The translations under genes were made by a program, and so were the position numbers. The notes below the pieces were generated by a model, which was not told where the DNA came from, made no database searches, and worked only from the letters and a program-made list of their open reading frames with translations. DNA of 64,000 nucleotides, taken from contig CAZKJM010000001.1 of assembly GCA_964553245.1 (NCBI GenBank), positions 81,806-145,805 on the forward strand, given 5' to 3'. How positions within the stretch are numbered: the stretch's first letter is position 1; each line of letters opens with the position of its first letter. The DNA comes from an uncultured Gammaproteobacteria bacterium (GTDB lineage: Bacteria; Patescibacteriota; Microgenomatia; Levybacterales; UBA12049). Shown here piece by piece: positions 18,216-34,831 of the stretch.

Positions 18216-19313
18216 CTATTTTTTATTTACCAATTCTTCCAGTGCTTTTAAAGTCTCTCTTGCTGTTTTTTCCCATGAAAATTTTTTAACCTGCTCATAA
18301 CCTTTTTTAATCATTTGTGCTCTTAGTTTCTCATTTTTTAAAACCTGATTAATTTTTGTTGTAATGTCGGAAACATTTTCTGGATCAATATAAACGGCAG
18401 CATCTCCACCTGCTTCGGGAAGAGAGGAAATATTGCTGGTAATTACAGGGCAACCGTATTTCATTGCCTCAAGTACAGGAAGACCAAATCCTTCATACAA
18501 AGATGGTAAAACAAAACATTTTGCATTTTTATAAAGTGACGGTAAATCTTCATTAGTTACAAAATCTAGAAACTTAACCCTATCCCTAACCTTATATTTA
18601 TCAGGAGCCGCTAATATTTCTTCATATAGCCAGCCTTTCTTACCAACAATAACTAAATCAACTTTTTTATCTTCAATTTTTGAGAATGCCTCAATTAGTC
18701 TCGAAGTATTTTTTCTTGGCTGAAGAGTCCCAACGAATAATAAGTACTGTTTATCTATTCCAAATTTCTTTAAGTCTGTATTTTTCATATCTTTTAACTG
18801 CTTAATGCCTGGGTAGGTCACAACTATCTTTTTTGAATCCACTTTATATTCTCTAATTATATCACTCTTGCTGGACTTGCTAATTGTAAAGATTAACTTT
18901 GCATTTACTGCAGAATATCTAGTCCAATTTATTAATTGATATAAATCATTTTTTTTAAATAAATCTGGAAAATGAATATAGGAAAGATCCATTATGGAAA
19001 TTGCTGTTGATGTAGGTGAGTATCTTGGGGCATAATGAGACGGTGTAAAAAAAACATCAGTTTTCTCTTTTTCAAACATTAATCTAAAAGGGAGAGCAAT
19101 TTGAGTCCACATTTTTTTAGGTCCAATTACTTTGTATTTCCAATTGCTAGACTCATTTGGCATATCTGAAAGAGGATTATCTTTTAGGTAAATTCTAAAA
19201 TCTAAATTCTGAGTCTTGAATTCATTGAGTTGCTTAAGCAACTCATATGCGTACTCACCTATTCCAACTCTATTTTTTACATTGGCTTCATTACCATCAA
19301 TTCCTATTATCAT
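18216..19313 (-). CDS. glycosyltransferase family 4 (GT-B)
   Basis: EGFGLPVLEAMKYGCPVITSN motif. 365 aa. Complete N- and C-domains. Confidence 0.8.
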   Translation of the reverse strand: MIIGIDGNEANVKNRVGIGEYAYELLKQLNEFKTQNLDFRIYLKDNPLSDMPNESSNWKYKVIGPKKMWTQIALPFRLMFEKEKTDVFFTPSHYAPRYSPTSTAISIMDLSYIHFPDLFKKNDLYQLINWTRYSAVNAKLIFTISKSSKSDIIREYKVDSKKIVVTYPGIKQLKDMKNTDLKKFGIDKQYLLFVGTLQPRKNTSRLIEAFSKIEDKKVDLVIVGKKGWLYEEILAAPDKYKVRDRVKFLDFVTNEDLPSLYKNAKCFVLPSLYEGFGLPVLEAMKYGCPVITSNISSLPEAGGDAAVYIDPENVSDITTKINQVLKNEKLRAQMIKKGYEQVKKFSWEKTARETLKALEELVNKK

Positions 19314-19317
19314 AATC

Positions 19318-19851
19318 TTAAAATCCTGGATAGATCACCTTTAATTTTTGCTTATCTATACCTAAGATATCAATTGCATCCTGTTTCGTAGCCTCAGAAA
19401 TACAAAATACTATATTAGACTCTTTTTTTACCCAATTAAGTTTTCTTCTTTGCGTCTGAACAATTTTATTGTCTGTTTCTTCTGGTTTAGAATATACAAT
19501 AAGGTCATATAAAATTGTAGCCTTAATTGCCTTTCTTGCTGGCGGTTCCGTCCAATCTGAAGTAATAAATAAATCTATGTCTCCGATAAAATTTTCGATT
19601 GGAACAATGTGAAGCTTATTCCATAAAATATTAAGTAAAGTTGGAGGTAGATTAAACGATTTTATCTTTACGTTATTTGAATTACTAAAATTTAACAAAG
19701 ACGAATCAATTTTTTTTCTTAAAGATGAAAAAAATAAAACATATTCATTCTTTGTGTCAATTTCCAAGAGAGCATTAACTAAGTTTTTAAGATATTCTGA
19801 AACTCCAGTGTTTTTGTATGCTAACTGAGAAATATCTATTCCAATTCTCAT
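19318..19851 (-). CDS. GT4 N-terminal-domain-only ORF (177 aa; possible gene remnant or stand-alone half-domain)
   Basis: It aligns with the N-domains of neighbouring GT4s (MRIGIDISQLAYKNTGVSEYLKNL... versus MKIGIDARFWNQTGIGRYTRNL...). It stops after VIYPGF, and there is no C-terminal nucleotide-binding domain with an E-x7-E motif. A complete GT4 starts 4 nt downstream. Confidence 0.5.
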   Translation of the reverse strand: MRIGIDISQLAYKNTGVSEYLKNLVNALLEIDTKNEYVLFFSSLRKKIDSSLLNFSNSNNVKIKSFNLPPTLLNILWNKLHIVPIENFIGDIDLFITSDWTEPPARKAIKATILYDLIVYSKPEETDNKIVQTQRRKLNWVKKESNIVFCISEATKQDAIDILGIDKQKLKVIYPGF

Positions 19852-19917: not shown

Positions 19918-20871
19918 ATGGGAATTGAAACAGAAAACAAAAGTATTATTAATTTAGGATCAAATCCTGAGCAAGAAACAAAAACATACAACATTAATGT
20001 AGATAATTTTATAAAAAAATACAAAGTAGAAGATCAAAAAACCATAGAAGTATTACGAGATTTTCCTACTCTTTGCTATCTTTTAGGAAATGTAACAGAG
20101 GAACCTCAAGGAACTGATTCAAGCCCAGATGGAATAAATCGTCATATTTTTTATTTAACAGAAGGTTCTGGAATGTTCGGATTAAAAAACCCAGAAGATG
20201 CTCAAAGATGGAAAGGTATTTTTAATCATATAATGGGATCTTCTAGGCATGTATATTTTTTATCCGAAAAAATTAATGCTTCAACAGCTAATCAAAAACA
20301 AGAATTATTCGATTTGGGATTTGATATTAATTCTCTTCGACAAATAAATCCTAAAATTCTTAGAGATTTTATGTTTGTTAACCATGCTGCAAGAAGACGA
20401 TTTGATGAAAGAAAATGGCATAATCTAAGAGATGATGCACACCCTGAAGGAGAAAGCGAAGATCTAACTACAAATTTACTTCTAGAAAATGATGCGCCTG
20501 AAGAGTTGATAAATTTAATGCGAGCAGAAAACCATACTTACTTAACCACACTTGGACGGAATAATTATCTTCCGAATCTTTCAATTAATATATTGACCTA
20601 TGGTGACTGGACATTTGGTCAAAAACCAGTCACCATAAAGGAAAGGTTTACTCAGCTAAGAAAATCCCGAAGACAACCCGAAGTAGTACTTAATAAACTT
20701 GAAAACTTCGCGCTTTACTTTGAGAAGTCTATAAAAAAAATATTCGGGGAAAGTATTTTTAGCGACATGATAAAATCTGGTCCTTATAGATGGGAAACAA
20801 AAATTCGAGACGCATATTGTTCTGCTTCTGGATTAACCATCGAAGATGTTTTTCCGAGTTATCGCAGGTAA
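19918..20871 (+). CDS. hypothetical cytoplasmic protein, no recognizable family
   Basis: 317 aa with no TM segments. It is rich in D/E/R/H/G, unlike the Lys/Ile/Phe-rich neighbours. It is the only plus-strand gene in the first 43 kb, lies divergent from 19318..19851, and has a TAAAAT hexamer about 10 nt upstream of the ATG. Confidence 0.5.
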   Translation: MGIETENKSIINLGSNPEQETKTYNINVDNFIKKYKVEDQKTIEVLRDFPTLCYLLGNVTEEPQGTDSSPDGINRHIFYLTEGSGMFGLKNPEDAQRWKGIFNHIMGSSRHVYFLSEKINASTANQKQELFDLGFDINSLRQINPKILRDFMFVNHAARRRFDERKWHNLRDDAHPEGESEDLTTNLLLENDAPEELINLMRAENHTYLTTLGRNNYLPNLSINILTYGDWTFGQKPVTIKERFTQLRKSRRQPEVVLNKLENFALYFEKSIKKIFGESIFSDMIKSGPYRWETKIRDAYCSASGLTIEDVFPSYRR

Positions 20872-20886
20872 TAATTTAATAAAATT

Positions 20887-21117
20887 TTATCCCTTGGATT
20901 CATTTTTAAGCTCCTCAATAAATATAAAGATTATTGCTAAGGCAATAAAGGAAGCTGCATAATAAATCAATCTTTGGGCGGTAAAAAATATCCAACTTGA
21001 AAACAAAGGAATCGCCAATATTAAACAAGCCAATCCTAGACTTAAAGTAAGCTTAAAACTTCGTTTGAAAATTAAAAAAACAAATATTATTAAAAAAATA
21101 GCATCTTGTGGTTTCAT
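20887..21117 (-). CDS. small membrane protein (76 aa, 2 predicted TM helices)
   Basis: Hydrophobic ORF located between the unknown plus-strand gene and the GtrB-like gene. Confidence 0.35.
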   Translation of the reverse strand: MKPQDAIFLIIFVFLIFKRSFKLTLSLGLACLILAIPLFSSWIFFTAQRLIYYAASFIALAIIFIFIEELKNESKG

Positions 21118-21164
21118 TTAAACTGTTAAATAAGATTTAAGCCCGTTTTTTAAAAACATTTTCC

Positions 21165-22118
21165 TTAATCCGTACTATATTTTAGTATATACGAAGAAGA
21201 ATCTACTTGATCGTTTTTCTGATTTAAGTGAAGTAAAAGATCTGCTAAAAATCCAGTAAAAAACACCTGAATACCAGCCAATACTAAAAGAATTCCAAAT
21301 AAAAGAAGTGGTCTGTTACCAATTGATTCACCTTGAAATCTAAGTATGCTTAAGTAGGCTAAGATTATTGAGCCTATTCCAAATAAAATTGATCCAAAAA
21401 TTCCAAAAAAATGCATTGGTTTTTTGCTGTATTTGTGAAGAAATATCATTGTAAACATATCTGGAAGGTCTTTAACAACCTTAGATATACCATATTTAGA
21501 CTTTCCATATCTTCTTTCTTCATGCTTAGTTGGTATTTCTGTTACTTTAAAACCTTGCGCAAAACTAAGCAAAGGAATAAAACGATGCATCCCGCCATAA
21601 AGATTTAAGCTTTTTGCTGCCTCTTTTTTATAAGCTTTTAATCCGCAGTTATAATCATGAAGTTTAACTCCCCAAATCGTAGAAGCAAGAAGATTAAAAA
21701 CTCTCGAGAAAAAAACCTTACCAAGCGAGTCTTTTCTATTTTTTCTCCAACCGGATACAACATCGTATCCTTCATCGAGCTTATTAAGAAGAGCTTTAAT
21801 CTCATCAGGTTTATCTTGTAGATCAGCATCAAGAGTGACCATAAAATCGCCTTTTGCTTTCTGAAAACCAATGGTTAAAACCTCAGCTTTACCCTGATTT
21901 TTCCTTAAAGAAAAAATCCTAACATTCTTATTCTTCTTTTCAAAATCCTTTAAAATCTCTAACGAGCCATCATTTGATCCGTCATCAACGAAAACTACCT
22001 CATAAGATTTGTTAATCTTGGAAAGATTTTTAATAAGCTCATCATAAAAATACTGAAGGCTTTCTTTTTCGTTAAAAACCGGCACAACTATACTCAACAT
22101 ATAGTTGTATTCTACCAT
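21165..22118 (-). CDS. polyprenyl-phosphate glycosyltransferase, GT2 (GtrB/DPM1/ArnC-like) with two C-terminal TM helices
   Basis: MLSIVVPVFNEKESLQYF...YEVVFVDDGSNDGS followed by the DAD region. 317 aa. The C-terminal hydrophobic hairpin is typical of GtrB-type Und-P-sugar synthases. Confidence 0.8.
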   Translation of the reverse strand: MVEYNYMLSIVVPVFNEKESLQYFYDELIKNLSKINKSYEVVFVDDGSNDGSLEILKDFEKKNKNVRIFSLRKNQGKAEVLTIGFQKAKGDFMVTLDADLQDKPDEIKALLNKLDEGYDVVSGWRKNRKDSLGKVFFSRVFNLLASTIWGVKLHDYNCGLKAYKKEAAKSLNLYGGMHRFIPLLSFAQGFKVTEIPTKHEERRYGKSKYGISKVVKDLPDMFTMIFLHKYSKKPMHFFGIFGSILFGIGSIILAYLSILRFQGESIGNRPLLLFGILLVLAGIQVFFTGFLADLLLHLNQKNDQVDSSSYILKYSTD

Positions 22119-24154
22119 TTTTTGGTTACATAACCAAACCCAAGGAAGAATAAAATTGAGGCTAAGGTTATTCCACTTAGAATTAAGCCTGTATCTACGT
22201 ATTTTTGCGGTTCATAATATACTGTTGCAGAGTAAGTCCCATCCTTATTGAGCTTAAAACTGTTAAATAACTTATACTTATCAGACATTATTTTTGAATC
22301 ACCAGCTATAAAACTCCAGTTCTTGTCAAAGCTTTCTGAAAAAATTAAATATGTATTTTTTTGAACATTTTCTAAGCTAACCTCATATTTAACTGGACTT
22401 ACATATTCATATTCAACATTACCCTGCCCAACTAGCCAAAAATGATCTTTTGGATCACTAACTTCAAAAACTTTTATTTTCCCAAAGCCTTCAGCGGGTC
22501 TTAACCAAGCTATCTTATTAATCTCATTTACTGTCTTTAAATATTCAACCTCGCTATATACCCTATCTTCTAAAAATATTTCTCCCTCAGAATCATATGG
22601 AACAATAACATACTTAACTGCTGATTCTCGTAAAAGGTTTTCTGTTTCTTTTTTGTCTAGACTCATAAATAAAGCAGAACTACTTGAGGTATTAAAAAGT
22701 TGAGAAGAGGAAATACTTGGATGTCTATTTGTTCCCATTGCAAATCGTTGTGTTGTTGGAACCCAAAAAGTTCTAAAAAATTGATCTTTTGACGAAATAA
22801 AATTATTTAATTTATCATATTCCAACGGAATACTACCCGGTTTAAAAGTTCCTGTCAGTTGACCAAGAATTGCAGGACAAATAAGAAACATTAAATAAAA
22901 GATAACAAGTAGTAAGAATAAATTTGGTAGGATTTTTTTATTTTTAAGTTGTAATTTTGAATTTTGAATTTTGAATTTTGAATTTATGAACACATATATT
23001 TTCGATACAGAGAATGGAATTAACATCGAATAAGATAAAACAATCAAGGCATAAAACTTCGTCGGGTCTCTAAACATCTGCATACCGGGAAGATGATTAA
23101 ATAGCCATAAATATATATTTCCAAACGGCTCATTTGATCCCTTTGCCAAAAATGCTCCAAATAGTCCCAATACTAAAAAATAGATAATATAAAGTTTTTC
23201 TTTTGAACTTTTTAATCCTTTAATAAAAAATAAGCTTAAATAAGCTAATATTGGTAAAATCAAGAATTCCGGCTTTAAAAAATATACTTTTCCAAAAATA
23301 TTTTCCGGCCAATTCGGATGAAGAAGAGAAAAAGAATTCTCAAATTTTGCAAAACTAAAAAACATTACGCCTTGAGAAGTGCTATACGCACTACCCATCT
23401 GCTCTATTGGATTTTGCCCAACAAGTAAAATTGGCAGAATCCAGTAAGAATTTAAAAGCAAAACAATAAATAAAGATAAAATAAACAATATTAAAGTATT
23501 GAAAAATACTTTCTTGTTTACATTTAATAAATTAAAAAGTAATAGAAGCAAAAATATAGAACATATTGCAACATATCCGATTCTTAAATCAAGCATTATC
23601 TGGATAGTTAAAATTAATCCTATTATTAATGTTTTTCTAAATAATTCATAAAAAGATATTTTTACAAAATTGTCTTTGGCAAAAATATTAATAAAAGAAT
23701 ATAAAGTTATTGGAATAAGTGCTATGGATAATGCAATAAATATTTGTCCGCCTCCAACAAGCATTAAAACATAGGAATTAAATAAAAATATTAAAGGGGT
23801 TAAAAAATAAAAATTATTATTTTTAAATAATCTCTTAAAAAGAAAACTTGAGGAAATTATTGAAAGTACAATAAAAGAATAAAAAAATGCAATTTTTTGA
23901 ATTAATTCTAAATTTATTTTTAAAAGATTACCTAAGAATAAAGGAAAACCAATAATAAAATTTAACCATCCATAAGCGTACATTGGTCCTCCCAATCCAC
24001 TTAAACCATTTCCCCAAGCGAATGCATTTAAAGTTGGGTTACTTACTGACAATGTAAAATCTCCCGAATTAACAGCGTTTCCTATAAACCAATTTCTAAA
24101 AACCGTTATTGTTAAAACAAAAAACAAGACTAGGGGAAAATTTTTTAATTTCAT
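22112..24154 (-). CDS. polytopic membrane protein, GT-C/YfhO-like architecture (about 14 TM helices, then a C-terminal soluble domain and a terminal TM anchor)
   Basis: 680 aa. The start overlaps the GtrB-like gene by 7 nt. The ORF contains a heptanucleotide tandem repeat. Confidence 0.5.
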   Translation of the reverse strand: MKLKNFPLVLFFVLTITVFRNWFIGNAVNSGDFTLSVSNPTLNAFAWGNGLSGLGGPMYAYGWLNFIIGFPLFLGNLLKINLELIQKIAFFYSFIVLSIISSSFLFKRLFKNNNFYFLTPLIFLFNSYVLMLVGGGQIFIALSIALIPITLYSFINIFAKDNFVKISFYELFRKTLIIGLILTIQIMLDLRIGYVAICSIFLLLLLFNLLNVNKKVFFNTLILFILSLFIVLLLNSYWILPILLVGQNPIEQMGSAYSTSQGVMFFSFAKFENSFSLLHPNWPENIFGKVYFLKPEFLILPILAYLSLFFIKGLKSSKEKLYIIYFLVLGLFGAFLAKGSNEPFGNIYLWLFNHLPGMQMFRDPTKFYALIVLSYSMLIPFSVSKIYVFINSKFKIQNSKLQLKNKKILPNLFLLLVIFYLMFLICPAILGQLTGTFKPGSIPLEYDKLNNFISSKDQFFRTFWVPTTQRFAMGTNRHPSISSSQLFNTSSSSALFMSLDKKETENLLRESAVKYVIVPYDSEGEIFLEDRVYSEVEYLKTVNEINKIAWLRPAEGFGKIKVFEVSDPKDHFWLVGQGNVEYEYVSPVKYEVSLENVQKNTYLIFSESFDKNWSFIAGDSKIMSDKYKLFNSFKLNKDGTYSATVYYEPQKYVDTGLILSGITLASILFFLGFGYVTKKW
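22953..22987. repeat. heptanucleotide tandem repeat: four perfect AATTTTG units (22953-22980) plus one imperfect unit (AATTTAT, 22981-22987) inside the coding sequence of 22112..24154
   Basis: Read directly: gtAATTTTGAATTTTGAATTTTGAATTTTGaatttatgaa. On the minus strand it encodes ...NSKFKIQNSKLQ.... The unit length is not a multiple of 3. Confidence 0.85.
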
Positions 24155-24474
24155 TTTTTATAAAATCTATCTTTAAATAAAAGATAAAAATATTTAGCTA
24201 ATGACAAAACGAGAAACCCATAAACAAAAGACATATAATGATTTGCTTCGACGGGAGAATTTAAAAGAAAGCTTACTATGCTTATACAAAAAAATATTAA
24301 AGCACAAATTTCAAAACTGAATCTTAATAAAACTAATATTATACAAAAAGTATAAATTACAAAATAATTTATATCGAATATCTGTCTTAATATAAAATAA
24401 TACAAAATAAAAAAAGGCCATTGCAAAAATCTATTGCTTTTTTTATCAAAATATTTTAACCACAACTTTTTCAT
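24151..24474 (-). CDS. small 3-4 TM membrane protein, possible GtrA-like flippase component
   Basis: 107 aa. It sits between two GT-C-like genes and downstream of the GtrB-like gene. The basic C-terminal tail ...AKYFYLLFKDRFYKK resembles GtrA-family C-termini only loosely. Confidence 0.3.
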   Translation of the reverse strand: MKKLWLKYFDKKSNRFLQWPFFILYYFILRQIFDINYFVIYTFCIILVLLRFSFEICALIFFCISIVSFLLNSPVEANHYMSFVYGFLVLSLAKYFYLLFKDRFYKK

Positions 24475-27400
24475 TTTTTATTAAGTCTTATATACAAAAT
24501 TAATGTTAAAATGAATACTGCTACTAAGATAAAAGCATTTCTTATCGTCTTTTTATACCCGATATATTCAATAATTATCGTGTCCGTTGGAGAATCTATG
24601 TACCATGCATTCGAGTATGAACTAGAAAAATGGTAATAATTTTTTTTATTATCATCTATTGGATAAGCAATCCAATCTTTATTATACGTTTGATTAAAAG
24701 CTAAAAATCCAGAAAAATTTTTTGACATTTTTAATTCATATTTCATTGGACTGTTTTTTCTTACATCTAAAATTCTTCCTGTTGTTTGTTTTTTGGAAGT
24801 TTCTAGCAAACAGTAAAGCCTTACATCGTCATTGCCTACTTCAGGAGAAATTATAAAATCATTATAAATACTAGGATTATTAGAATTCGTATCTAAATTA
24901 ATCACATAAAAATAATACACTGGGTGATCAAAATTATTCACATTAAATTCCTTCGAAAAAGCTTGTTGCTTATTGCTCTTTTTGAGTATCGTTCCAAAAA
25001 CAATAGAATTTTTATCGTGTACTCCATCTCTTATTTCATTTAAATCTAATTTTCCCTTGGACAATAACAAAACATATGTTCCTTCAGATTCTTCATTAAG
25101 AGTAAAACCAATATGATAGCTTCCATTTTTTAGCAAACCAGCTTTTATCTCATTTATACCTCCTACATTTTCCTGCAGACTATCTAACTCTAAGATATTT
25201 TTTACATTATATTTAATCTCTGCTTGAAAGCTTCCTTTTGAAAGAGTAATGTAACCCGGAAGAGATAACTCGTTATTGTTAATAGTAACTTTATTAATAT
25301 TTAAATTACTATTTCTTGCCTCAGCGAAACACCTATAATCTCCTGTATGTGATATATCAAGCCTCATTCTGTAAACTTTTTCAATATAATCTGTCTCCCA
25401 AATATTGTTTTTAATATCATTAATTGACTTTTCTATGTATGATAAAAGATAAAGTATTTGCGTATTCAGCTCATTATCTCTTAGGGGATTGATTTTTGTA
25501 GGATTAAAATTTCCACCGGTAACAAAGTTTATCAATTTTTCCTGCTGTGGGATTAGAAAATTAATTACTTCAATACTTTTGTTGTTTTTTGTAAAAAAAT
25601 CTGAATTTAACGAATTTAAATTATTTATCGTGTCTCTAAAAGATAAAATATATTTTGACGCCTGGTCCTTAACTTCGCCTGTTGTACCATTATCTATTTT
25701 TTTAAATAAATTCAAAAATTCATTCTGGGTATGAATTAACGAATAACTAATTTTATCTTCATCGGTTAATATTACTGGATTTGTCTTTCCGATAATTGTT
25801 TTTATTACCGTTTTAATTTTCTTTATGAAGCTATCGTCATCTACTTGAGGTAATTTTGCATTAATCTTAATGCAGCCTACGCAATTGGCAACAGAAGAAT
25901 AATCACTAATTTTTTCACTAAATTGCTTTAGTAAAGTATTTTCACTTACAATGATGTATCCCTCAACTGCGCCTATTTGTCTTGATAAAATCTCAAATTC
26001 CTCCCCTGAATTTAGTTGTAAATTAGTATATACCAGCCTTGAAGGCGTTGAAAAACCATAGTTAAAATCTTTAATTGTATTTAACTTAAATAACTTAAAA
26101 TATGTATTTTCATAAATCTTATTAAATTCTTCATCTTTTTCAAGCCCAAAAGCTATTTTTTCCGGATCAATATCATTTAAGTTTAAATAATTTGTGTAGT
26201 AAAAAGGCACATTATCTTTTTTTACTAAAACTAAACCTATTTGGTTTTGGACTAGAAAATTTTTAAAATCTTGCAAGTTATCTTTTTGAAGCATCAAATA
26301 TGGAGACATATTAAAAGAATCAGGTTTGTTTTGAATAAATTGTGTATTTAAAAAACTGCAATTTATCAACCTGTTTAAAATTTCCTGTCCAACATAGGAG
26401 TAACCCGTTTTTTCCCATACTGCGTTTGAGATAATTGATGTTTTCGGAATAACAAGAGTTGTCGTACGTTGACATTCCTTTTCTAAATTGAGTTTTAAAT
26501 CATAATATTCAACTGGAATTTGAGTTTTTGAACTAAAAACATAGTCTTTATTACCGTAAGTGAAATTAACTTTTTTAACATTGTCGTAAGAAAAAATAAA
26601 AAATGGTCCCGTTATTATCGCGGTAACACACAGCACAAGAAAAAATGTAGCAAATATTGTCTTTTTCATTTTGTAGCGAATAAGATAATCCAGTAGTAGC
26701 ATTAAACCAACACCTGTTAAAACAAAGTAACTGAAAAAGTAAAAAAGTCCTGCTTTTTGATACGCATCTCTAAACGCTCCAAAAAATGGAATATAATCAA
26801 ATGCAAATCTTAATATCCAAGACAATGGAGGATTCCCGGCTTTCATAATAAATATGAACATCAGAAGTAAAAATAAAAAATATATTAAAATATTTTTATT
26901 CTTTATATTTTTTAGCCTAAGCATCAAAAAAACAATCAAAAAGGGAAGAAGGAAAATCGGTAAAGTGAAAACAGAACCGCTGACATAAAATTCATTCCAG
27001 CTAAATGCATTATTTATCATCATCGGACTACCCAAGATCCTTAAAATATTTAACAAGGTGCTCCCTTGGGCATTAACGTCAAGATATATAGAGGTTCCCA
27101 AGCTAGCCTGGGATTCATACTGCTTAGCCAAAATTGAGATTATTGGAGAAAACCACCACGAGTTAATTAAAACGACTAATAAAAAGAATAAACAAATATT
27201 TAATGTTTTCCTACTGATTAATTTTGTATTAGAAGTAAAAAAATAAAAGAATAGGTATATAAAGATGATTATTAAATATTGAGCAAGATAGATATATGAA
27301 ATAAATCCTGGGATTAAAAATAATTCACTCAAAAAAAATGCGAATAACCAAAATGACCTTTTATGCTGATTATTTTTGTCTAATGGAAAAAGCTTAATAA

Positions 27401-27893
27401 GACATAAAAAATTAAATGGAAGCATGCTGTAAATATAAATTTGGGGATTAAACATAAAATAAGCATAATAAAAAGTGTAAAGATTTAAAGAATAAATAAT
27501 TGAAAATGAAATGATGCCGAGTGAAATATATTTATTCTTATTAATTTTTAGATAACTGGCAAGATAGCTCAAGAATAAATAATAGCTAATAATAGATAAC
27601 ATTATGAAAGAAATATATAGAAGAAATTGCGCAGTTGACAAGCTTGAAAATAACTCCGCAAATAAGGATGTTGGCAAAACATAAGGAATCCAAGCCCAGC
27701 CAAAACCAAAATCACCAGGAAAAATATTGCTATCCCATGTATCAAGAAAATGTAAAGAATGCGTTAAATCAAAAGAAAGAAGACTATCCCAATAATAAAT
27801 GATTGTACCTCCCTCAAACCATTTATGTACTGCCATTACCGCAATAAAAAAACTAAATATAATTAAAACAACTGCCTTCAGGATTTTGCTCAT
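24471..27893 (-). CDS. 1140-aa giant membrane glycosyltransferase-like protein (N-terminal GT-C-like polytopic domain, about 680-aa extracytoplasmic domain, C-terminal TM anchor; AftD-like architecture)
   Basis: About 12 N-terminal TM helices with an acidic first loop (YYWDSLLSFDLTHSLHFLDTWDSNIFPGDFGFGW). A long hydrophilic region rich in N/Y/T follows, and the final segment is a TM helix, ...AFILVAVFILTLILYIRLNKK. Confidence 0.5.
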   Translation of the reverse strand: MSKILKAVVLIIFSFFIAVMAVHKWFEGGTIIYYWDSLLSFDLTHSLHFLDTWDSNIFPGDFGFGWAWIPYVLPTSLFAELFSSLSTAQFLLYISFIMLSIISYYLFLSYLASYLKINKNKYISLGIISFSIIYSLNLYTFYYAYFMFNPQIYIYSMLPFNFLCLIKLFPLDKNNQHKRSFWLFAFFLSELFLIPGFISYIYLAQYLIIIFIYLFFYFFTSNTKLISRKTLNICLFFLLVVLINSWWFSPIISILAKQYESQASLGTSIYLDVNAQGSTLLNILRILGSPMMINNAFSWNEFYVSGSVFTLPIFLLPFLIVFLMLRLKNIKNKNILIYFLFLLLMFIFIMKAGNPPLSWILRFAFDYIPFFGAFRDAYQKAGLFYFFSYFVLTGVGLMLLLDYLIRYKMKKTIFATFFLVLCVTAIITGPFFIFSYDNVKKVNFTYGNKDYVFSSKTQIPVEYYDLKLNLEKECQRTTTLVIPKTSIISNAVWEKTGYSYVGQEILNRLINCSFLNTQFIQNKPDSFNMSPYLMLQKDNLQDFKNFLVQNQIGLVLVKKDNVPFYYTNYLNLNDIDPEKIAFGLEKDEEFNKIYENTYFKLFKLNTIKDFNYGFSTPSRLVYTNLQLNSGEEFEILSRQIGAVEGYIIVSENTLLKQFSEKISDYSSVANCVGCIKINAKLPQVDDDSFIKKIKTVIKTIIGKTNPVILTDEDKISYSLIHTQNEFLNLFKKIDNGTTGEVKDQASKYILSFRDTINNLNSLNSDFFTKNNKSIEVINFLIPQQEKLINFVTGGNFNPTKINPLRDNELNTQILYLLSYIEKSINDIKNNIWETDYIEKVYRMRLDISHTGDYRCFAEARNSNLNINKVTINNNELSLPGYITLSKGSFQAEIKYNVKNILELDSLQENVGGINEIKAGLLKNGSYHIGFTLNEESEGTYVLLLSKGKLDLNEIRDGVHDKNSIVFGTILKKSNKQQAFSKEFNVNNFDHPVYYFYVINLDTNSNNPSIYNDFIISPEVGNDDVRLYCLLETSKKQTTGRILDVRKNSPMKYELKMSKNFSGFLAFNQTYNKDWIAYPIDDNKKNYYHFSSSYSNAWYIDSPTDTIIIEYIGYKKTIRNAFILVAVFILTLILYIRLNKK

Positions 27894-28897
27894 ATTATGT
27901 TTTTACCAATTGAACCCTCGCGAACTATTTTATTTAACGAATATCTTTTCATAAACTTTAACATTAACTTTGGGATTAACAATGAAGAAACTAACCAAAA
28001 CCAGAAAGAAAAACTATATAAAAATTTTTTTCTTAATTGTATTACCCTTCTTGCTCCTTTTATTAGGTTAAAATTGGTATTAGAATACTTATTTGCCGGA
28101 AAATGTCTAATTAATTCTCTTATTATTTTGTCAATGAACTCATTTGCTTCTTCTTTATTAAGTGACTTTTGTAAAAATAATAAATACTTTTCAAATGAAA
28201 ATTTACCTTCTTTTATGTAAAAAAAGGGGTGATTAGGGTTTTTATCTTTATCTATCCACCGAGCAAAAAATAAATATTTGGAAATAAAAAATCCTCCGCT
28301 CTCTTTTATATTACCTATTAACATGTCTATCCATGGGATAAGCTCTGAATTAATTAATCTATTTTTTTTATTCTGCTTCAATATGATTCCCGTAAGAAAA
28401 AATGGATCCACTTTTTCAAGGAATTTGATAATTTCATAATTGCCCAAATTAGGATTCAGACTCTTATTTGTTAAAAATTTATTATCCTTATTAAAATTAA
28501 AAATTTTTCCTGTTTTATCATTAACGCTTAAGTAATTTGCTCTAATAAATCCATAATTATTCTTTGTTAAATGTTTATAAATATGCTTTAAAGCATTACT
28601 ATTCTTCATATAGTCGTCGTCTCCATGAAAAATAATGTATCTTCCCTTAGATAATGAAATTGCTTTCTGAAGGTTACCTATCCAAGTAATTTTTTTTGCA
28701 TTTTTTATATACTTTATTCTTGAATCCTTAAAGCTTAATACGATTTCTCTTGTTGAATCACTAGAGTTGTTATCAGAGATTACAATCTCAAAATTTTTAA
28801 AAGTTTGTTTAAGTATGGCAACTATTGCTTTATTAAGATATTGTTCTCTATTGTAAGTGGGTATCAAAATTGAAAAAAAGGGGTTATTTACTTTCAT
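27890..28897 (-). CDS. glycosyltransferase family 2 (GT-A)
   Basis: FFSILIPTYNREQYLNKAIVAIL...ISDNNSSDST. 335 aa. Confidence 0.75.
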   Translation of the reverse strand: MKVNNPFFSILIPTYNREQYLNKAIVAILKQTFKNFEIVISDNNSSDSTREIVLSFKDSRIKYIKNAKKITWIGNLQKAISLSKGRYIIFHGDDDYMKNSNALKHIYKHLTKNNYGFIRANYLSVNDKTGKIFNFNKDNKFLTNKSLNPNLGNYEIIKFLEKVDPFFLTGIILKQNKKNRLINSELIPWIDMLIGNIKESGGFFISKYLFFARWIDKDKNPNHPFFYIKEGKFSFEKYLLFLQKSLNKEEANEFIDKIIRELIRHFPANKYSNTNFNLIKGARRVIQLRKKFLYSFSFWFWLVSSLLIPKLMLKFMKRYSLNKIVREGSIGKNII

Positions 28898-29856
28898 TTA
28901 TATAACATTTGTTCCATTGTTTGATAATATTTGAGAAACTTCTTAACTTTTATTTCGTCTGGTAATACAATATAGAATTTTTTACATTCAATTAGTAATT
29001 CTTTTTCTTCATCTGTAAAAAGTTTCTCTGTAATTTTCTCTCCGTTCCTTTTTCCAACAATTTTTATTTTTATTTTTTTACTATTTGAGTTCTTTATAAT
29101 AGTTTTTTTTGCTAATTGATAAATATTTTCCTCGTCCATCTTTAACACAAATATCTCTTGACCTTTCATTAACGTAGCCGCAAGAAAAACTAAATTAACT
29201 GCATCGGGAATTGACATAAAAAACCTTTTCATTCTTTTATCGGTAACTGTTACTGGTCCTCCTTCATTAATTTGATTAATCCATACTGGTATAACAGATC
29301 CTCTTGAGTTCATAACATTCCCAAATCTAACAACTGAAAACTTAGTAAGAGCAGACCCAGAGTAATATTTGGAACAGATTACCATTTTTTCCATAAGAAG
29401 TTTTGTAATACCCATAACATTATTAGGATATACTGCTTTATCGGTAGATATGGCAATTAACCTATCAACATTATTTTTAATTGCCAAGTCAATTATATTT
29501 TGTGTCCCATAAACATTGGTCTTTATTGCTTCAAAAGAATTATTTTCACAATATGGAACGTGTTTTAATGCAGCTGCATGAAAAACAATATTAACCCCTT
29601 GAAAGGCTTTTTCAAGTCTATCTTTGTCTCTTATATCTCCAATAAAATATTTAATATCTACTGGACTAGAAAGTTTTTTCAGTTCTTGTTCAAGAAAAAA
29701 ATGCTTAGACTCATCCCTGGAGTATACTCTAACTTGCTTTGGCCTGTATGGCAAAATTTGTCTTACGATTTCACTTCCAATTGATCCAGTTCCACCAGTT
29801 ACCAAAATTATTTTTTTATTAAAAGTTCGAAATAATTTTTTATTTAATTTTGTCAT
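28894..29856 (-). CDS. nucleotide-sugar (UDP/GDP-GlcNAc) 4,6-dehydratase of the PseB/FlaA1/CapD/LegB family
   Basis: KKIILVTGGTGSIGSEIVRQIL...VRVYSRDESK...FIGDIRDKDRL...FHAAALKHVP...ISTDKAVYP is collinear with Campylobacter/Helicobacter PseB. 320 aa. Confidence 0.8.
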   Translation of the reverse strand: MTKLNKKLFRTFNKKIILVTGGTGSIGSEIVRQILPYRPKQVRVYSRDESKHFFLEQELKKLSSPVDIKYFIGDIRDKDRLEKAFQGVNIVFHAAALKHVPYCENNSFEAIKTNVYGTQNIIDLAIKNNVDRLIAISTDKAVYPNNVMGITKLLMEKMVICSKYYSGSALTKFSVVRFGNVMNSRGSVIPVWINQINEGGPVTVTDKRMKRFFMSIPDAVNLVFLAATLMKGQEIFVLKMDEENIYQLAKKTIIKNSNSKKIKIKIVGKRNGEKITEKLFTDEEKELLIECKKFYIVLPDEIKVKKFLKYYQTMEQMLYK

Positions 29857-30685
29857 TAAAGCTTTTTCTTATAAAACCAGGCAGATTATTTTTAAATTCT
29901 ATTTTAATTTCTTTGGATAGTTTATCGTTTGATATATTTTCTATATTCTCGTAAGGCTCACGTTTAGCGTATTTTACCTTAAATTTACTTTTTGTTAAAG
30001 TGGAAACAAGTTTTATAAACTCTCTTACTGTATATTCCTCTTCTCCACTTAAATTATAAGTACCATAAATGTCTTGCAACATGGACTCAACAATTAAATT
30101 TGCACAATCGTCAACGTGCATAAAAAACCTTTTTAATGAACCGTTATTATTAAAATATAATTTTCTATCTGATATAAAAGATTTATAAACATATCCACTT
30201 ATTCCTTTTGAACCAATTCCATATAGATTAGATATTCTATATATAGTTTTTTTTCGGTCAGGAATAAATTCATTAATCAAAAACTCCGAATATGCCTTGC
30301 ATGTTGAATAAGGAGTCTCTGGGTTTAAAGGATTTTCTTCCAAAGCGTAATCCGTAGTTCCATAAACTGCAACGGTTGATAATTGAATTAGCTTCTTGTC
30401 ATATTTATTACAAATTTTGATTAGATTTAAAATTGCTTTTGAATTAAGCAAAAAACATTGATTTATTGGAAAGCTTATTTGTCCAGTACAGTTAACAACT
30501 GTATCGAAAGCCCTAGACTCCTCTTCAAGCTGATTATAGTTAAGAATATCAATTCTCTTATTTCTAGAATTTTTATTATGCATAGATGCAAATCCTGTAT
30601 TTCTAATCCCTCTTTCGGATAGTTTTTTTACTATGCTTTTACCAAGGAATCCACTACCACCTAATACCATTACCGACTTATTCAT
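29840..30685 (-). CDS. NAD(P)-dependent epimerase/dehydratase (short-chain dehydrogenase/reductase superfamily, extended class)
   Basis: VMVLGGSGFLGKSIVKKL Rossmann motif. 281 aa. Confidence 0.6.
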   Translation of the reverse strand: MNKSVMVLGGSGFLGKSIVKKLSERGIRNTGFASMHNKNSRNKRIDILNYNQLEEESRAFDTVVNCTGQISFPINQCFLLNSKAILNLIKICNKYDKKLIQLSTVAVYGTTDYALEENPLNPETPYSTCKAYSEFLINEFIPDRKKTIYRISNLYGIGSKGISGYVYKSFISDRKLYFNNNGSLKRFFMHVDDCANLIVESMLQDIYGTYNLSGEEEYTVREFIKLVSTLTKSKFKVKYAKREPYENIENISNDKLSKEIKIEFKNNLPGFIRKSFNDKIK

Positions 30686-31832
30686 AAAATTTTTTTTGAA
30701 TGATGTTACTGAGAGGAATTGTCTTTAATACTTTAACAATTTTTTCTGCAGAATTACCTATGCCATAAGGATTTCTAATTTTTTTAATTGAGTTTAGAAA
30801 TTTTTTATCATATAGAGCTTTTTTTATAGCTTCCATAATTTCTTTTTTGCTATATCCTACATCTATAACGTTGCTAGACCTTTCTCTGCCTTGTTGTCGG
30901 GTACCAATGTTAACCACTGGAGTTTTAAAGGTAGCTGCCTCATGAATACCAGAGCTTGAATTCCCTATTAAAACAGATACATATCTTAATAAATTGGAAT
31001 ATTTTGTAGAAGATAGTGTTGGATAGTATTTTACATTAAGTTTTTTCAATTGCTTGATAATTCCAGAATATCCAGCATCGTTATTAGGAAATAATATTAT
31101 ACTTTGTATTTTTAAAGTTTTTAAAGCTTCAATCGTTTCAATAATCTGAGAATCTGATTTGTTATTTTCAGTTGTAACAGGATGCTGAATCATTAATGCT
31201 ACTGGTTTTGAAAAATCCACATTGAATTCTTTTTCCAGCTCCTTCTTCGAAATCTTCTTCGAATTTAAAAGGGTATCTATTGATGAACAACCTACTGTAA
31301 AGATAAATTTTGGGTCTTCTCCAATTCTTATTAGTCTTTTTTTAGATAGCATCGTTGCTGGAAAATGTATATGAGCAAATTTACTCATTGCATGTCTTAT
31401 GCTCTCATCGATGCTTCCTGTAAGTTCTCCTCCCTGAATATGAGCAACGGGAATATTCATATGCGCAGCTGCTATAGTTACTGCAAAATTTGCTCCAATA
31501 TCAAATCCCGATAAAACTATATCTGGCTTAACCTTTTCTAGCTCATCGACAATCTTCAACATAAATCTACTCATACCCCTTACCATCTCTGCACCAGAAT
31601 CTTCCCCATTGTCTTTAAACATTTTTATTTCGGAAGAAATTTTAAAACCATCATTTTTTATGTTTTGAATATCATGCCCATGACTTTTTAATAAACAAAT
31701 TCCTGTAACCACAATATATAGTTCAAAAAAAGGATCTTCTTTTATCTTTTCTAAAACAGGCTTGAATCTACTATAATCAGCCCTTCTTTCTATGACTACA
31801 AAAATTTTTCTCATTTCCCTATATCCCTCCAT
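30678..31832 (-). CDS. neuC: UDP-N-acetylglucosamine 2-epimerase (hydrolysing), NeuC/LegG family
   Basis: ADYSRFKPVL...LYIVVTG...GFDIGANFAVTIAAAHMNIPVAHIQGGE...DESIRHAMSKFAHIHFPAT is collinear with NeuC. Confidence 0.8.
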   Translation of the reverse strand: MEGYREMRKIFVVIERRADYSRFKPVLEKIKEDPFFELYIVVTGICLLKSHGHDIQNIKNDGFKISSEIKMFKDNGEDSGAEMVRGMSRFMLKIVDELEKVKPDIVLSGFDIGANFAVTIAAAHMNIPVAHIQGGELTGSIDESIRHAMSKFAHIHFPATMLSKKRLIRIGEDPKFIFTVGCSSIDTLLNSKKISKKELEKEFNVDFSKPVALMIQHPVTTENNKSDSQIIETIEALKTLKIQSIILFPNNDAGYSGIIKQLKKLNVKYYPTLSSTKYSNLLRYVSVLIGNSSSGIHEAATFKTPVVNIGTRQQGRERSSNVIDVGYSKKEIMEAIKKALYDKKFLNSIKKIRNPYGIGNSAEKIVKVLKTIPLSNIIQKKFYE

Positions 31833-32887
31833 TTTAACTGAGTGTTAATAGGCAAGCTTCTAATTATTTTTTTACCTAAAATTTTTCTATAGTCCTTTGC
31901 TTTAATCTCACCTGTTCCAGGTCTCTTTACCCAAATATTTTCTTCTGTGAGTAGATCGCCTTTTTTTATTTCTTTTGTCGTCACGACGCAAGCGTAAGCA
32001 AAATTAATAGTAGGTTGTTCTTCTTTTAAAATATTTTTTGAACCACCAAGTGCCTTATGAATAAAATCCGTACCTTTAATTAATTCACTAAGCTCAGTAG
32101 GATCGATTGAGATAGGAATATCTGGCCCAGGCCACTTCTTGCTCGATGTAAAATGTTTTTCAATTATTGATGCGCCACAACTTATAGCAGCAAAACTAGT
32201 ATAATTTCCTATTGAATGATCGCTTAATCCTACTACGGTATTAGGAAATGTTTTTGACAGATCAACTAGTGCCCCCAATCTTACTTTTTCGTAAGGCGTT
32301 GGATAAATTGAAGTACAATGTAATATTGCAAATTCAGTTTTATAGCTTCTAAGTATCTTAACTGCCTTTTTTATAGAAGGGATATCATTCATTCCCGTAC
32401 TTAGAATAATTGGTTTTTTAAATCTAGCAATATGCTCAATCAATGGATAATTATTGCACTCTCCGGACCCAATTTTGTAAGCATCAACATTCATTCTTTT
32501 CAATCTTTCTGCTGCTGCGCGCGAGAATGGAGTAGATAGATAAATCATACCCTTAGATTCAACATATCTTTTTATCTTAAAATCCTCTTCCTCTGATAAT
32601 TTGCATCTTTCCATAATTTTCCAGATGGTTTCCTTGGTATTTCCAGGCACGACCTTATTTGGAATCATCTCATCCTCTATTACATGTGCCTGAAACTTAA
32701 CGCACTCACAACCTGCATTATGGGCATCATCTATCATCCTAATTGCTTTCTTAATATTTCCTTCGTGATTAATCCCCACTTCTGCAATAATAAATGGCTT
32801 AAAAGAAGGACCAATCTTTCTATCCTTTATTTTTATATACTGCTTTGAATTCATATTAAATCTAAAAAACCCTAAACTGCATAGCAA
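31811..32887 (-). CDS. neuB: nonulosonic acid (N-acetylneuraminate/legionaminate/pseudaminate-type) synthase, NeuB family with C-terminal SAF domain
   Basis: FIIAEVGINHEGNIKKAIRMIDDAHNAGCECVKFQ is the NeuB TIM-barrel N-terminal signature. 358 aa. A C-terminal antifreeze-like (SAF) domain region is present. Confidence 0.85.
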   Translation of the reverse strand: MLCSLGFFRFNMNSKQYIKIKDRKIGPSFKPFIIAEVGINHEGNIKKAIRMIDDAHNAGCECVKFQAHVIEDEMIPNKVVPGNTKETIWKIMERCKLSEEEDFKIKRYVESKGMIYLSTPFSRAAAERLKRMNVDAYKIGSGECNNYPLIEHIARFKKPIILSTGMNDIPSIKKAVKILRSYKTEFAILHCTSIYPTPYEKVRLGALVDLSKTFPNTVVGLSDHSIGNYTSFAAISCGASIIEKHFTSSKKWPGPDIPISIDPTELSELIKGTDFIHKALGGSKNILKEEQPTINFAYACVVTTKEIKKGDLLTEENIWVKRPGTGEIKAKDYRKILGKKIIRSLPINTQLKWRDIGK

Positions 32888-34017: not shown

Positions 34018-34021
34018 TTTA

Positions 34022-34801
34022 CTAAATTATTGTCCAGCCTCCATCAACTATTAAATTATGACCTGTTATGTATGATGAGGCATTCGAAGAAAGAAACAAT
34101 ACGGGCATAATAAAATCTTTTGGAGTTGCCATTCGACCAAGCGGAGTAAATTTTGAATAATTTTTTACGAATCTAGGATTTTGATTATCGAATACTCCAC
34201 CTGGGCTAATACAATTTACCCTTACATTATATTTACCAAAATATGACGCAAAATATCTTGTCATTGTATTAATCCCACCTTTAATTAAAGGATAAGCCGC
34301 AGCGGTAGTCATATTAGTTCCTTCATAAATATTGAAATTTGGTCCTACTAAGCCATATATTGAGCTGAAATTTATAATACTGCCTTTTTTTCTTCTGCTC
34401 ATATCTATTGCAACTTGCTGAGAAACATAATAATAACCACCCAAATGATCCAATAAATTTTTTCGAACAGACTGCAAAGGAGTTTTTTTTATATCAACTT
34501 GCCAATCTAAAGTTCTTGGAAAACTGCAATTAATTAAAACGTCAATATTTTTATACTTATTTTTAAAGTTTTTTAGCAAAAAATCTATGCTATTTTTACT
34601 TGAAATATCAAACTTAACGGTTGTAATTTTTTTCTCTTCCTGGTTTAAGTATTTAACTAACTCTTTATCAATAACCTTATCTGCAATAAGTAATTTACTC
34701 TGTAATTTTACAAAAGCCTTTACAAGCTCTTTTCCTATTAAACCAAAACCCCCAATTAGCAAAATATTTTTATCTTTTAAATCTGAAAAATCGTATCTCA
34801 T
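34022..34801 (-). CDS. SDR-family oxidoreductase (classical short-chain dehydrogenase)
   Basis: NILLIGGFGLIGKELVKAF glycine-rich motif. 259 aa. Confidence 0.6.
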   Translation of the reverse strand: MRYDFSDLKDKNILLIGGFGLIGKELVKAFVKLQSKLLIADKVIDKELVKYLNQEEKKITTVKFDISSKNSIDFLLKNFKNKYKNIDVLINCSFPRTLDWQVDIKKTPLQSVRKNLLDHLGGYYYVSQQVAIDMSRRKKGSIINFSSIYGLVGPNFNIYEGTNMTTAAAYPLIKGGINTMTRYFASYFGKYNVRVNCISPGGVFDNQNPRFVKNYSKFTPLGRMATPKDFIMPVLFLSSNASSYITGHNLIVDGGWTII

Positions 34802-34831
34802 TTTATTTTACCGTATTATATAACGAAATTA

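Follow-up and report, generated by a model that had tools for sequence, protein, structure and literature searches.

The 64,000-nucleotide (nt) stretch of DNA analysed here (the window, to whose positions all coordinates refer unless a locus such as L006 is named) encodes at 24471..27893, on the minus strand, a giant 1140-amino-acid (aa) membrane protein which, judged by sequence profiles and a predicted structure, is a highly divergent member of the AftD-type (PF11847 / DUF3367) superfamily of GT-C glycosyltransferases. It is best described as a divergent subfamily of AftD-type GT-C proteins specific to bacteria of the Candidate Phyla Radiation (CPR) and set in a system resembling Gtr or CsbB-YfhO. 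We consider it probable that the giant protein acts as an extracytoplasmic, lipid-donor-dependent GT-C glycosyltransferase that represents a divergent AftD branch in Microgenomates-type CPR bacteria.

A first-pass annotation of this DNA had placed a giant membrane protein at these same coordinates, and the open reading frame (ORF), which starts with ATG and comprises 1140 codons, was borne out by its homologues. A search of 5.8 billion proteins returned one identical copy and 36 significant homologues with identities of 31-44%, most of which cover about 95-100% of the protein, together with a subgroup of about 1005 aa that covers about 60% of it. This homologue set therefore identifies a real gene and no chance ORF. 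Almost all homologues are nameless, the named sources being Candidatus Levybacteria and unclassified 'bacterium' metagenome-assembled genomes (MAGs); the 33 close homologues that were aligned with the 1140-aa protein (close-family alignment, 34 sequences) derive from Levybacteria/Woesebacteria-type CPR MAGs.

The AlphaFold2 model of the protein, built on the 34-sequence alignment, had a mean predicted local distance difference test (pLDDT) value of 82.7 and a predicted TM-score (pTM) of 0.78, the least confident region being extracytoplasmic loop 4 (EL4; pLDDT about 50-60). When this model was compared by Foldseek with 350,542 PDB chains, only three matches were obtained at the significance line of E ≤ 0.001, all of them cryo-EM entries of mycobacterial AftD (6w98_A, E 1.5e-11; 6wby, 1.2e-10; 6wbx, 2.1e-10; probability 1.00), with TM-scores of 0.45/0.40 over the whole multidomain chain and an identity of about 9%. 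No transporter, polymerase, ligase or other GT-C enzyme was found at E ≤ 0.001. The first-pass annotation had proposed this structure prediction and search, naming a transporter or an unrelated fold as the result that would contradict its AftD-like reading, and neither of them appeared at that threshold.

At the level of sequence, the protein is connected to AftD through remote relatives. When 1.84 billion cluster representatives (clusters at 50% identity) were searched exhaustively with a HMMER profile, 3,539 related clusters were obtained at E ≤ 1e-3, including 1,609 at E ≤ 1e-10, with a sharp score gap, from at least 282 bits down to at most 245 bits, below the approximately 30 best clusters, which consist of close-family members and fragments. 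Forty remote relatives were sampled, each of which matches the family profile at E ≤ 1e-33; PF11847 GT-C_AftD was found in 25 of them (best E 6e-32), and some carry CBM_4_9 or Laminin_G_3 according to the Pfam scan. A profile made from the remote relatives matched the AftD chain with an E value of 4.4e-17, and the profile of a merged superfamily alignment of 57 sequences, in which both AftD-type proteins of the window are included, did so with an E value of 5.1e-19. The regions matched by the merged profile were the transmembrane (TM) module (hidden Markov model (HMM) positions 39-249 to chain positions 45-243) and, from 414-579 to 412-569, the first soluble domain; the last beta-sandwich gave a weak, non-significant alignment to chain positions 1198-1277. 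Taken with the Foldseek result, these matches uphold the earlier suggestion of an AftD-like architecture in an organism that is not an actinobacterium.

Hydropathy and the AlphaFold2 helices place 11 TM helices within residues 1-433 of the protein, where EL4 (residues 248-306) links TM7 to TM8 and EL5 links TM9 to TM10, followed by an ectodomain of about 677 aa (residues 434-1110) and a last TM helix (residues 1111-1139; nt 24477..24563) that ends in the basic tail ...RLNKK. Lys and Arg amount to 10 in the 35 residues of the cytoplasmic loops versus 6 in the 160 residues of the outer loops, and the 11-TM topology thus strongly obeys the positive-inside rule. About 12 N-terminal helices had been estimated in the first-pass annotation; 11 were counted, and the helix formed by residues 66-82 is best read, from the model, as a juxtamembrane helix of the first loop (EL1) and not as a TM helix. 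The remainder of that description was accurate as regards the acidic EL1 (7 Asp/Glu and no Lys or Arg), the extracytoplasmic part of about 680 aa, the single terminal helix and its basic tail. The ectodomain is also rich in Asn, Tyr and Thr, as had been claimed (N 11.4%, Y 6.0%, T 5.9%); the Asn content is, however, ordinary, because a neighbouring family 2 glycosyltransferase (GT2) without TM helices contains 10.7% Asn and the G+C content of the window is 25-35%. This richness was rejected as a functional signal, since it equals the usual protein composition of an AT-rich genome.

Conservation within the 1140-aa family is concentrated on the outer face of the membrane, with 29 conserved loop positions on the outer versus 1 on the inner side, and 25 conserved positions in the outer half versus 10 in the inner half of the TM helices, which is the pattern that a GT-C active site predicts. 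Asp36 (codon 27786..27788), which belongs to the EL1 motif YYWD-x3-P-L-D, is invariant in the close-family alignment, as are Phe374-Arg375 and Lys380 in EL5 and Asp560 in the first soluble domain, and position 504, which is Glu in the 1140-aa protein (codon 26382..26384; YVGQ-E504), is occupied by Asp in at least 90% of the members. Across the merged superfamily alignment, W25, D36, N137, P356, F374, R375, K380 and D560 are conserved in at least 90% of the sequences.

In AftD, where EL4 connects TM7 with TM8 and EL5 connects TM9 with TM10, residues K39, D41, E251, K361 and D474 are essential, and E475, W272 and R357 are highly or, in the case of R357, absolutely conserved (bioRxiv 10.1101/2019.12.22.885152). 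Judged by loop position, Asp36 may correspond to AftD Asp41 and is a candidate for the catalytic or donor-binding Asp, and Arg375 and Lys380 in EL5 are candidate counterparts of AftD R357 and K361. The HMM alignments to AftD begin just past Asp36, and pairwise links via intermediates are too weak for residue mapping. Further along these alignments, the 'RDEP' segment of AftD (D474/E475, chain index +3) falls on Q503/E504, with position 504 aligned to E475. A counterpart of AftD K39 was not identified in the alignments of the 1140-aa family.

The giant gene is embedded in a cassette with the order GT2, giant gene, 107-aa protein gene, 680-aa protein gene and GtrB/ArnC-like GT2 (Table 1), whose gene junctions comprise four ATGA overlaps and one overlap of 7 nt. 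This order is kept, as far as the contigs extend, in all five distinct loci sampled from other MAGs, namely a Levybacteria/Levyibacteriota MAG (represented by both L001 and L005), a Woesebacteria MAG, one further bacterium and two MAGs labelled 'uncultured Gammaproteobacteria'. The GT2 of 335 aa sits immediately upstream of the giant gene in every locus examined and is ATGA-coupled to it, and the 107-aa gene lies directly downstream in 5/5 of the distinct loci whose contig reaches past the giant gene. The GtrB-like GT2 at the end of the cassette is present in L001/L005 and L006, the contigs of L004, L007 and L008 stopping earlier. In a scan of 20700..30800, promoter and terminator sites were both no commoner than in shuffled sequence, and the inference of an operon therefore rests on the overlapping start and stop codons.

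The terminal GT2 of 317 aa matched ArnC (PRK10714; 4.6e-54) and PgfS (1.2e-41), in both cases under the equivalog cut-offs, as well as Glycos_transf_2 (2e-35), and is on the basis of these matches a candidate polyprenyl-phosphate-sugar synthase that would give the lipid-linked donor. We also observed that two of the contigs that carry the CPR-type cassette, as far as they extend, bear the label 'uncultured Gammaproteobacteria bacterium' (L006, CAZSXQ010000002.1; L007, CAYSAP010000019.1), with G+C contents of 33%, like the CPR loci, and 47%, respectively; either these taxonomic labels look doubtful or the cassette looks to have moved horizontally.

Pairs of GT-A and GT-C enzymes accompanied by a small membrane protein are a documented signature of multi-component transmembrane glycosylation (PMC8035078; PMC11127046), and since the GT2, small protein and GT-C of the cassette show this arrangement, the giant protein is proposed as the outward-facing transferase. 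The catalysis, donor synthase, flipping, acceptor and sugar that we infer would fit together as follows. The GT2 encoded at 21165..22118 would, at the cytoplasmic face, take a sugar from a nucleotide sugar and load it onto polyprenyl phosphate, and the lipid-linked sugar would then be flipped to the outer face, where the 11-helix GT-C module would bind it in a pocket that EL1 (Asp36), EL4 and EL5 (Arg375, Lys380) form together with the membrane-proximal soluble domain (Asp/Glu504, Asp560). The enzyme would transfer the sugar to a surface glycopolymer held by the distal beta-sandwiches, plausibly the polymer made by this locus, while the ectodomain would be tied back to the membrane by the C-terminal helix. 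A related transfer with another specificity is probably the task of the 680-aa paralogue.

Several observations weigh against this reading of the giant protein. The protein has zero credible Pfam or NCBIfam matches, PF11847 being absent at E ≤ 0.1, and none of the 34 aligned members matches DUF3367/GT-C_AftD, YfhO, PMT_2 or any carbohydrate-binding module (CBM) family even at E ≤ 1; the HMM scans for CBM, DUF3367/AftD and YfhO that the first-pass annotation had recommended came out negative for the protein and for all of its aligned relatives. The close-family profile likewise gave nothing above noise against the PDB sequences. Direct family matches being absent, membership of the AftD family therefore rests on transitive and structural evidence, and the link to AftD is a remote one. 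Within the putative active site, an equivalent of AftD E251 was not identified in the alignments of the 1140-aa family, EL4 being a low-confidence region of the model, and an ungapped extension of the HMM alignment leaves Asp36 two residues off AftD Asp41. The donor, the acceptor and the flippase are guesses taken from gene order. In addition, a non-catalytic scaffolding role has been proposed for one member of the AftD superfamily, MmpA (PMC8698533).

The most serious rival follows from this last point and holds that the giant protein has lost transferase activity and serves as an AftD-like scaffold or transport helper that organises an envelope-assembly complex, which we consider rather improbable. 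MmpA (NCgl2761/Rv0226c) is partly homologous to about 668 N-terminal residues of AftD, has no recognised catalytic motifs and has been proposed as a membrane anchor for a complex (PMC8698533); the 680-aa paralogue weakly matches the NCBIfam model of MmpA (NF053599; E 2e-5, 23.4 bits against a cut-off of 210), with no such match for the 1140-aa protein. A scaffold would also agree with the lack of an E251 equivalent in the giant family and with the Gln that the 680-aa paralogue has at the position aligned with AftD E475. However, the EL1 Asp, the EL5 Arg/Lys pair and the acidic residues of the soluble domain are invariant or nearly so and have been retained across thousands of relatives, conservation is centred on the outer membrane face, where the active sites of GT-C enzymes lie, and the cassette strictly retains a GtrB/ArnC-like lipid-sugar synthase alongside the giant gene. 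Such a synthase would be pointless without a GT-C consumer, which argues against a scaffold.

The same synthase bears on the idea that the protein is a true AftD orthologue, that is, an arabinofuranosyltransferase using a polyprenyl-phosphate pentofuranose. AftD is the closest solved structure and the sole significant match, and three-component pentofuranose GT-C systems are widespread beyond actinobacteria (PMC11127046); however, a UbiA-type polyprenyl-phosphoribose synthase, a DprE1/E2-type epimerase and a MATE flippase were not found among the window's scanned ORFs, and the synthase that is co-conserved belongs to the GtrB/ArnC type of GT2, whose products are polyprenyl-phosphate-hexose or aminosugar donors. 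With these donor-pathway genes not found there, a co-conserved synthase of the GtrB type, an identity of about 9% to AftD and no five-helix C-terminal bundle for binding acyl carrier protein, we judge orthology to be very unlikely. We attach an equally low probability to a role in polymerising or ligating glycans (Wzy/WaaL-like) or in transport. The locus does contain a Wzx-like flippase and an initiating phosphoglycosyltransferase with no polymerase recognised, and the protein is a large polytopic membrane protein without family assignment; yet sequence and fold point to an AftD-type GT-C, the Foldseek search gave no such protein at E ≤ 0.001, and several other unassigned polytopic ORFs of the window could fill the polymerase role (13587..16769, 40240..42324, 43478..45220 and 62270..63787). 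Least probable of all, in our estimate, is a teichoic-acid-type glycosyltransferase of the YfhO family, which works with CsbB/GtcA in a system of the same kind (PMC8035078) and shares with the giant protein a layout in which a multi-TM N-terminus precedes an ectodomain and a C-terminal anchor. The sandwich at the C-terminus of the giant protein resembles that of the YfhO gene of the locus (E 3e-4), but PF09586 matches 0/34 members of the family at E ≤ 1, yet detects the true YfhO-family gene at the window end, the TM-module HMMs miss the protein of that gene, and the remote relatives map to PF11847 and not to YfhO. The YfhO likeness noted in the first-pass annotation consequently does not extend to the family level, the TM module being unrelated.

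The 107-aa protein has 3-4 hydrophobic segments, and the start of its gene overlaps the stop of the giant gene (ATGA). Its 16 homologues all come from the lineage of the 1140-aa protein and share an invariant Arg30 and an invariant E-A-N-H-Y-x-S-F-V motif. In locus L006, the GT2, giant and 107-aa genes each occur twice, the giant and 107-aa genes being duplicated as an adjacent pair (107-aa copies at 5207..5548 and 8554..8895). The protein has no relative in Pfam or the PDB, and Pfam scans of all 16 family members gave no GtrA, SMR or GacJ/DUF2304 match. Given its sequence conservation and gene position, we propose it as a dedicated accessory partner of the giant enzyme, for which it may act as a flippase or as a GacJ-like helper.

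That the two proteins form an undescribed two-subunit GT-C enzyme is a step further and, although the idea deserves mention, we think it unlikely. It is based on the invariant Arg within the membrane, the outward E-A-N-H-Y motif, the joint duplication and the occurrence in the same CPR lineage. The 107-aa subunit would then either replace the regulatory C-terminal bundle of AftD (a 'split AftD') or hand the lipid-linked donor to the active site, and the optional helical bundle of the giant protein would be a spacer or ruler placing the enzyme on a CPR-specific surface polymer. The notion of a detached TM13-16 was tested with the 107-aa profile, which matched no segment of AftD even at E ≤ 10. 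Among 314 fetched proteins, no fused giant/107-aa form was found save for one very weak case, a metagenomic protein of 597 aa (P0185) in which residues 84-180 bear a weak resemblance to the 107-aa partner (E 0.08). Residues 236-595 of P0185 correspond to the giant family's distal ectodomain (profile positions 671-1042), and it may be a fused or rearranged form.

Comparison with described systems places the giant protein closest to AftD (PDB 6W98/6WBX/6WBY; PF11847, formerly DUF3367), with which it shares the 11-helix GT-C module, the long EL4 (TM7/TM8) and the EL5 (TM9/TM10), an Asp in EL1, an Arg/Lys pair in EL5, an alpha/beta soluble GT-C domain that follows TM11 and is acidic at the D474/E475 position, and further beta-sandwiches of which the last leads back into the membrane. 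It differs from AftD in having one C-terminal TM helix instead of five, and therefore no four-helix bundle for binding acyl carrier protein; in a four-helix ectodomain insert that AftD lacks; and in a separate membrane partner of 107 aa in its cassette. AftD contains three CBMs, to which the sandwiches of the giant protein (836-1110) cannot be assigned. The context of the giant gene points to a donor of the GtrB/ArnC type and not to decaprenyl-phosphate arabinofuranose, and its host is a CPR bacterium without the envelope of the mycolata. MmpA (NF053599) is similar in that it is a moderately sized homologue of the AftD N-terminus and carries an extracytoplasmic domain close to its own C-terminus (PMC8698533), but it is confined to Corynebacterineae and tied to the transport of trehalose mycolate, a process that CPR bacteria lack.

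The cassette as a whole resembles the GtrA/GtrB/Gtr*, CsbB/GtcA/YfhO, GacI/GacJ/GacL and Pgf systems, in which a membrane-linked GT2, a small protein with 3-4 TM helices and one or more outward GT-C enzymes are likewise adjacent. In contrast to these systems, its GT-C proteins come from the AftD branch and not from PMT_2, YfhO or GT136, its 107-aa protein is unlike GtrA, SMR and GacJ/DUF2304, and it combines two GT-C with two GT2 enzymes. The YfhO family (PF09586) in particular has an analogous layout, with a similar C-terminal sandwich and anchor, but a dissimilar TM module and no Pfam match to the giant protein.

The 680-aa protein encoded two genes downstream of the giant gene is a remote paralogue that has the TM module and the first soluble domain in common with it and likewise ends in the C-terminal sandwich and anchor, the distal ectodomain being absent. 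BLASTP aligned it to the 1140-aa protein with 29% identity over 142 residues (E 2e-8), and hhalign of the two family alignments gave a probability of 98.3% and an E value of 2.6e-14 over 486 columns, which correspond to the TM module and the first soluble domain. In this alignment Asp36 pairs with Asp32 of the paralogue, and an FRD motif is common to both. More than 960 homologues of the paralogue were found across Patescibacteria. The TM-module HMM detected only this gene in the window, the unassigned polytopic ORFs of 1060, 694, 580 and 505 aa not being detectably related.

A HMM of the C-terminal module (sandwich plus anchor) matched the 680-aa paralogue (E 5e-9), a PTPS_related GT-C protein (60569..62203; E 2e-5) and, marginally, the gene that runs off the window end at 63831..64000 (fragment E 0.03; full-length protein E 3e-4 in a nine-sequence database). 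When completed from the DNA past the window end, this last gene encodes a 779-aa protein with Pfam YfhO (PF09586), which the AftD-like TM-module HMMs do not detect. Of the three-member, locus-specific family proposed in the first-pass annotation, the paralogue at 22112..24154 is thus a genuine member and the gene at 63831..64000 belongs to YfhO. The recurrence of the domain and anchor was clear for the former, only marginal for the latter, and extended to the gene at 60569..62203, which had not been listed. Since the module occurs also in the PTPS_related GT-C and weakly in AftD, the sequence comparisons indicate that it is a generic ending of several GT-C families and not specific to this locus.

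The ectodomain consists of four parts (Table 1). The membrane-proximal soluble GT-C domain, which contains the invariant D560 and conserved Cys474/Cys512 and Cys671/Cys674, aligns with the 680-aa paralogue as far as residue ~571. The helical bundle that follows is a discrete optional insert, because module HMMs showed that the members of about 1005 aa lack exactly residues 681-835 and keep all other modules. Neither the alpha/beta domain nor this four-helix insert had been foreseen in the first-pass annotation, which had suggested that carbohydrate-binding or beta-sandwich domains may be present. Beta-sandwiches are present in the models beyond the insert, the C-terminal one bearing the motif F-N-Q-T-Y-x-x-D-W...H...Y-x-N-A-W-Y-I; a specific CBM family was not supported, in line with the negative Pfam scans.

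A domain-only model of the distal ectodomain (pLDDT 80.1) had the Vip3Aa protoxin as its best Foldseek match (E 5e-6), with three-domain Cry toxins next; other matches were to CBM-like domains associated with glycoside hydrolases (5x7o, 5awo, 4qaw, TmCBM61), viral jelly rolls and receptor-binding domains of toxins. All of these matches lie at E values of 5e-6 to 1e-2, with TM-scores of 0.2 or less throughout. Profiles of remote relatives match solved CBMs at roughly the position of residues 836-1035. The beta-sandwich fold class of the distal ectodomain is thus supported by the models, and a carbohydrate-binding role of the sandwiches would be reasonable by likeness to AftD, EmbC and GT136. 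Residues 681-1035 share with the Vip3Aa and Cry toxins the order of a helical bundle followed by beta-sandwiches, which at these TM-scores (≤0.2) may be a generic likeness.

Table 1. Features of the giant gene and of the other genes of its cassette (window positions; residues refer to the 1140-aa protein unless the row concerns another gene).
Feature	Position	Strand	Basis
Whole gene, 1140-aa AftD-type GT-C membrane protein, stop included	24471..27893	-	ORF list, homologues, AlphaFold2, Foldseek
GT-C transmembrane module, residues 1-440, 11 TM helices	26574..27893	-	AlphaFold2 helices, positive-inside statistics, profile alignment to AftD
EL1, first extracytoplasmic loop, residues 27-84, acidic	27642..27815	-	Loop composition, conservation
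EL5 loop, residues 350-381, motifs K351-x-G-N-P-P356 and F374-R375...K380-A-G	26751..26846	-	Invariant columns
Membrane-proximal alpha/beta 'soluble GT-C' domain, residues 441-680	25854..26573	-	Alignment to AftD chain 412-569
Helical-bundle insert, four long helices, residues 681-835	25389..25853	-	DSSP of models, module HMMs
Two predicted beta-sandwiches (jelly-roll, CBM-like), residues 836-1035, conserved Cys855/Cys1028	24789..25388	-	Models, Foldseek
Predicted C-terminal beta-sandwich (1036-1110), TM anchor (1111-1139) and basic tail	24474..24788	-	Module HMM, models
107-aa small membrane protein, 3-4 hydrophobic segments	24151..24474	-	Homologues, synteny
680-aa remote paralogue, AftD-type GT-C	22112..24154	-	hhalign, BLASTP, module HMM
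GT2, 335 aa, no predicted TM helix	27890..28897	-	Pfam/NCBIfam best PglI, TuaG, WcaA-type
GtrB/ArnC/PgfS-like GT2, 317 aa, two C-terminal TM helices (234-262, 265-298)	21165..22118	-	NCBIfam, Pfam, hydropathy

The ORFs of the window were scanned for families, five of them being assigned only by similarity to scanned family 4 glycosyltransferases (GT4) and epimerases. The glycan genes recognised include an initiating transferase (Bac_transf), a Wzx-like flippase (53726..55045, 26 kb from the cassette), a DegT aminotransferase and many GT2 and GT4 genes, along with GT-C proteins of the PMT_2, PTPS_related and YfhO types, and judged by this gene content the window forms a single long locus for glycan assembly. 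A GT-C island is made up of two AftD-like, three PMT_2, one PTPS_related and one YfhO-family gene as well as a GT2+PMT_2 fusion of 765 aa (12149..13618, 22112..24154, 24471..27893, 49958..51289, 56087..57277, 58275..60572, 60569..62203 and 63831..64000). At least three further PMT_2 genes follow just past the window end (L009 9562..17518), giving about 11 recognisable GT-C genes in about 72 kb of a small CPR genome, which is unusually dense. Two short GT2s, at 45222..45926 (-) (234 aa) and 52395..53135 (-) (246 aa), are 28-29% identical to the catalytic domain of the GtrB/ArnC-like GT2 and, by their length and the extent of the alignments, seem to be without C-terminal TM helices; they are possible extra polyprenyl-phosphate-sugar synthases for other GT-C genes.

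Directly upstream of the cassette, in the same strand run and operon, lies a pathway for a sugar of the nonulosonic-acid type (28894..36711, -), with genes for a PseB/CapD-like dehydratase, an epimerase, a NeuC-like UDP-GlcNAc 2-epimerase and a NeuB synthase with SAF domain, and also for an FkbM methyltransferase, a short-chain dehydrogenase/reductase (SDR) and a GFO/IDH/MocA oxidoreductase; the junctions that were checked (28894/28897 and downstream) overlap, and no CMP-transferase was recognised in this set. Split transketolase-like subunits (one N, one with pyrimidine and C domains) and a separate three-domain thiamine pyrophosphate (TPP) enzyme are encoded at 36716..40223 (-), and in the Levybacteria MAG a transketolase pair is found immediately upstream of the cassette (L001 7221..8971). 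The presence of transketolase subunits in a glycan locus hints, from gene content, at a two-carbon branched or modified sugar. On the other side of the cassette, a 177-aa ORF (19318..19851, -) corresponds to the N-terminal half of a GT4 (Glyco_transf_4) and lies beside a complete GT4 (18216..19313, -); a similar ORF of 187 aa occurs in the Levybacteria locus (L001 19662..20225), and the half could be a split GT4 or an accessory half-domain. A second giant ORF (13587..16769, -), of 1060 aa and without Pfam match, has about 21 hydrophobic segments along its whole length and could be a polymerase or another unclassified membrane enzyme.

Bacteria of the CPR (Patescibacteria) are ultra-small, mostly uncultivated episymbionts whose surface must mediate attachment to the host, and to our knowledge the chemistry of this surface is essentially unknown. 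We found no literature linking CPR or Patescibacteria to AftD-like or GT-C enzymes, and the AftD branch of the GT-C enzymes has been studied almost solely in its role as a drug target in mycobacteria. The chemistry predicted here corresponds to the well-known multi-component extracytoplasmic glycosylation, and no new mechanism is involved. With the present analysis, a 'hypothetical protein' receives a specific assignment that can be tested, as an AftD-type GT-C protein with named candidate catalytic residues. The analysis also indicates that the AftD branch, with its 3,539 clusters, reaches far past what the Pfam model detects, and that the relatives sampled outside actinobacteria combine a single C-terminal anchor with a variable set of acceptor-binding domains. 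Finally, it defines a conserved five-gene cassette that is suited to heterologous expression work on the surface glycans of CPR bacteria.

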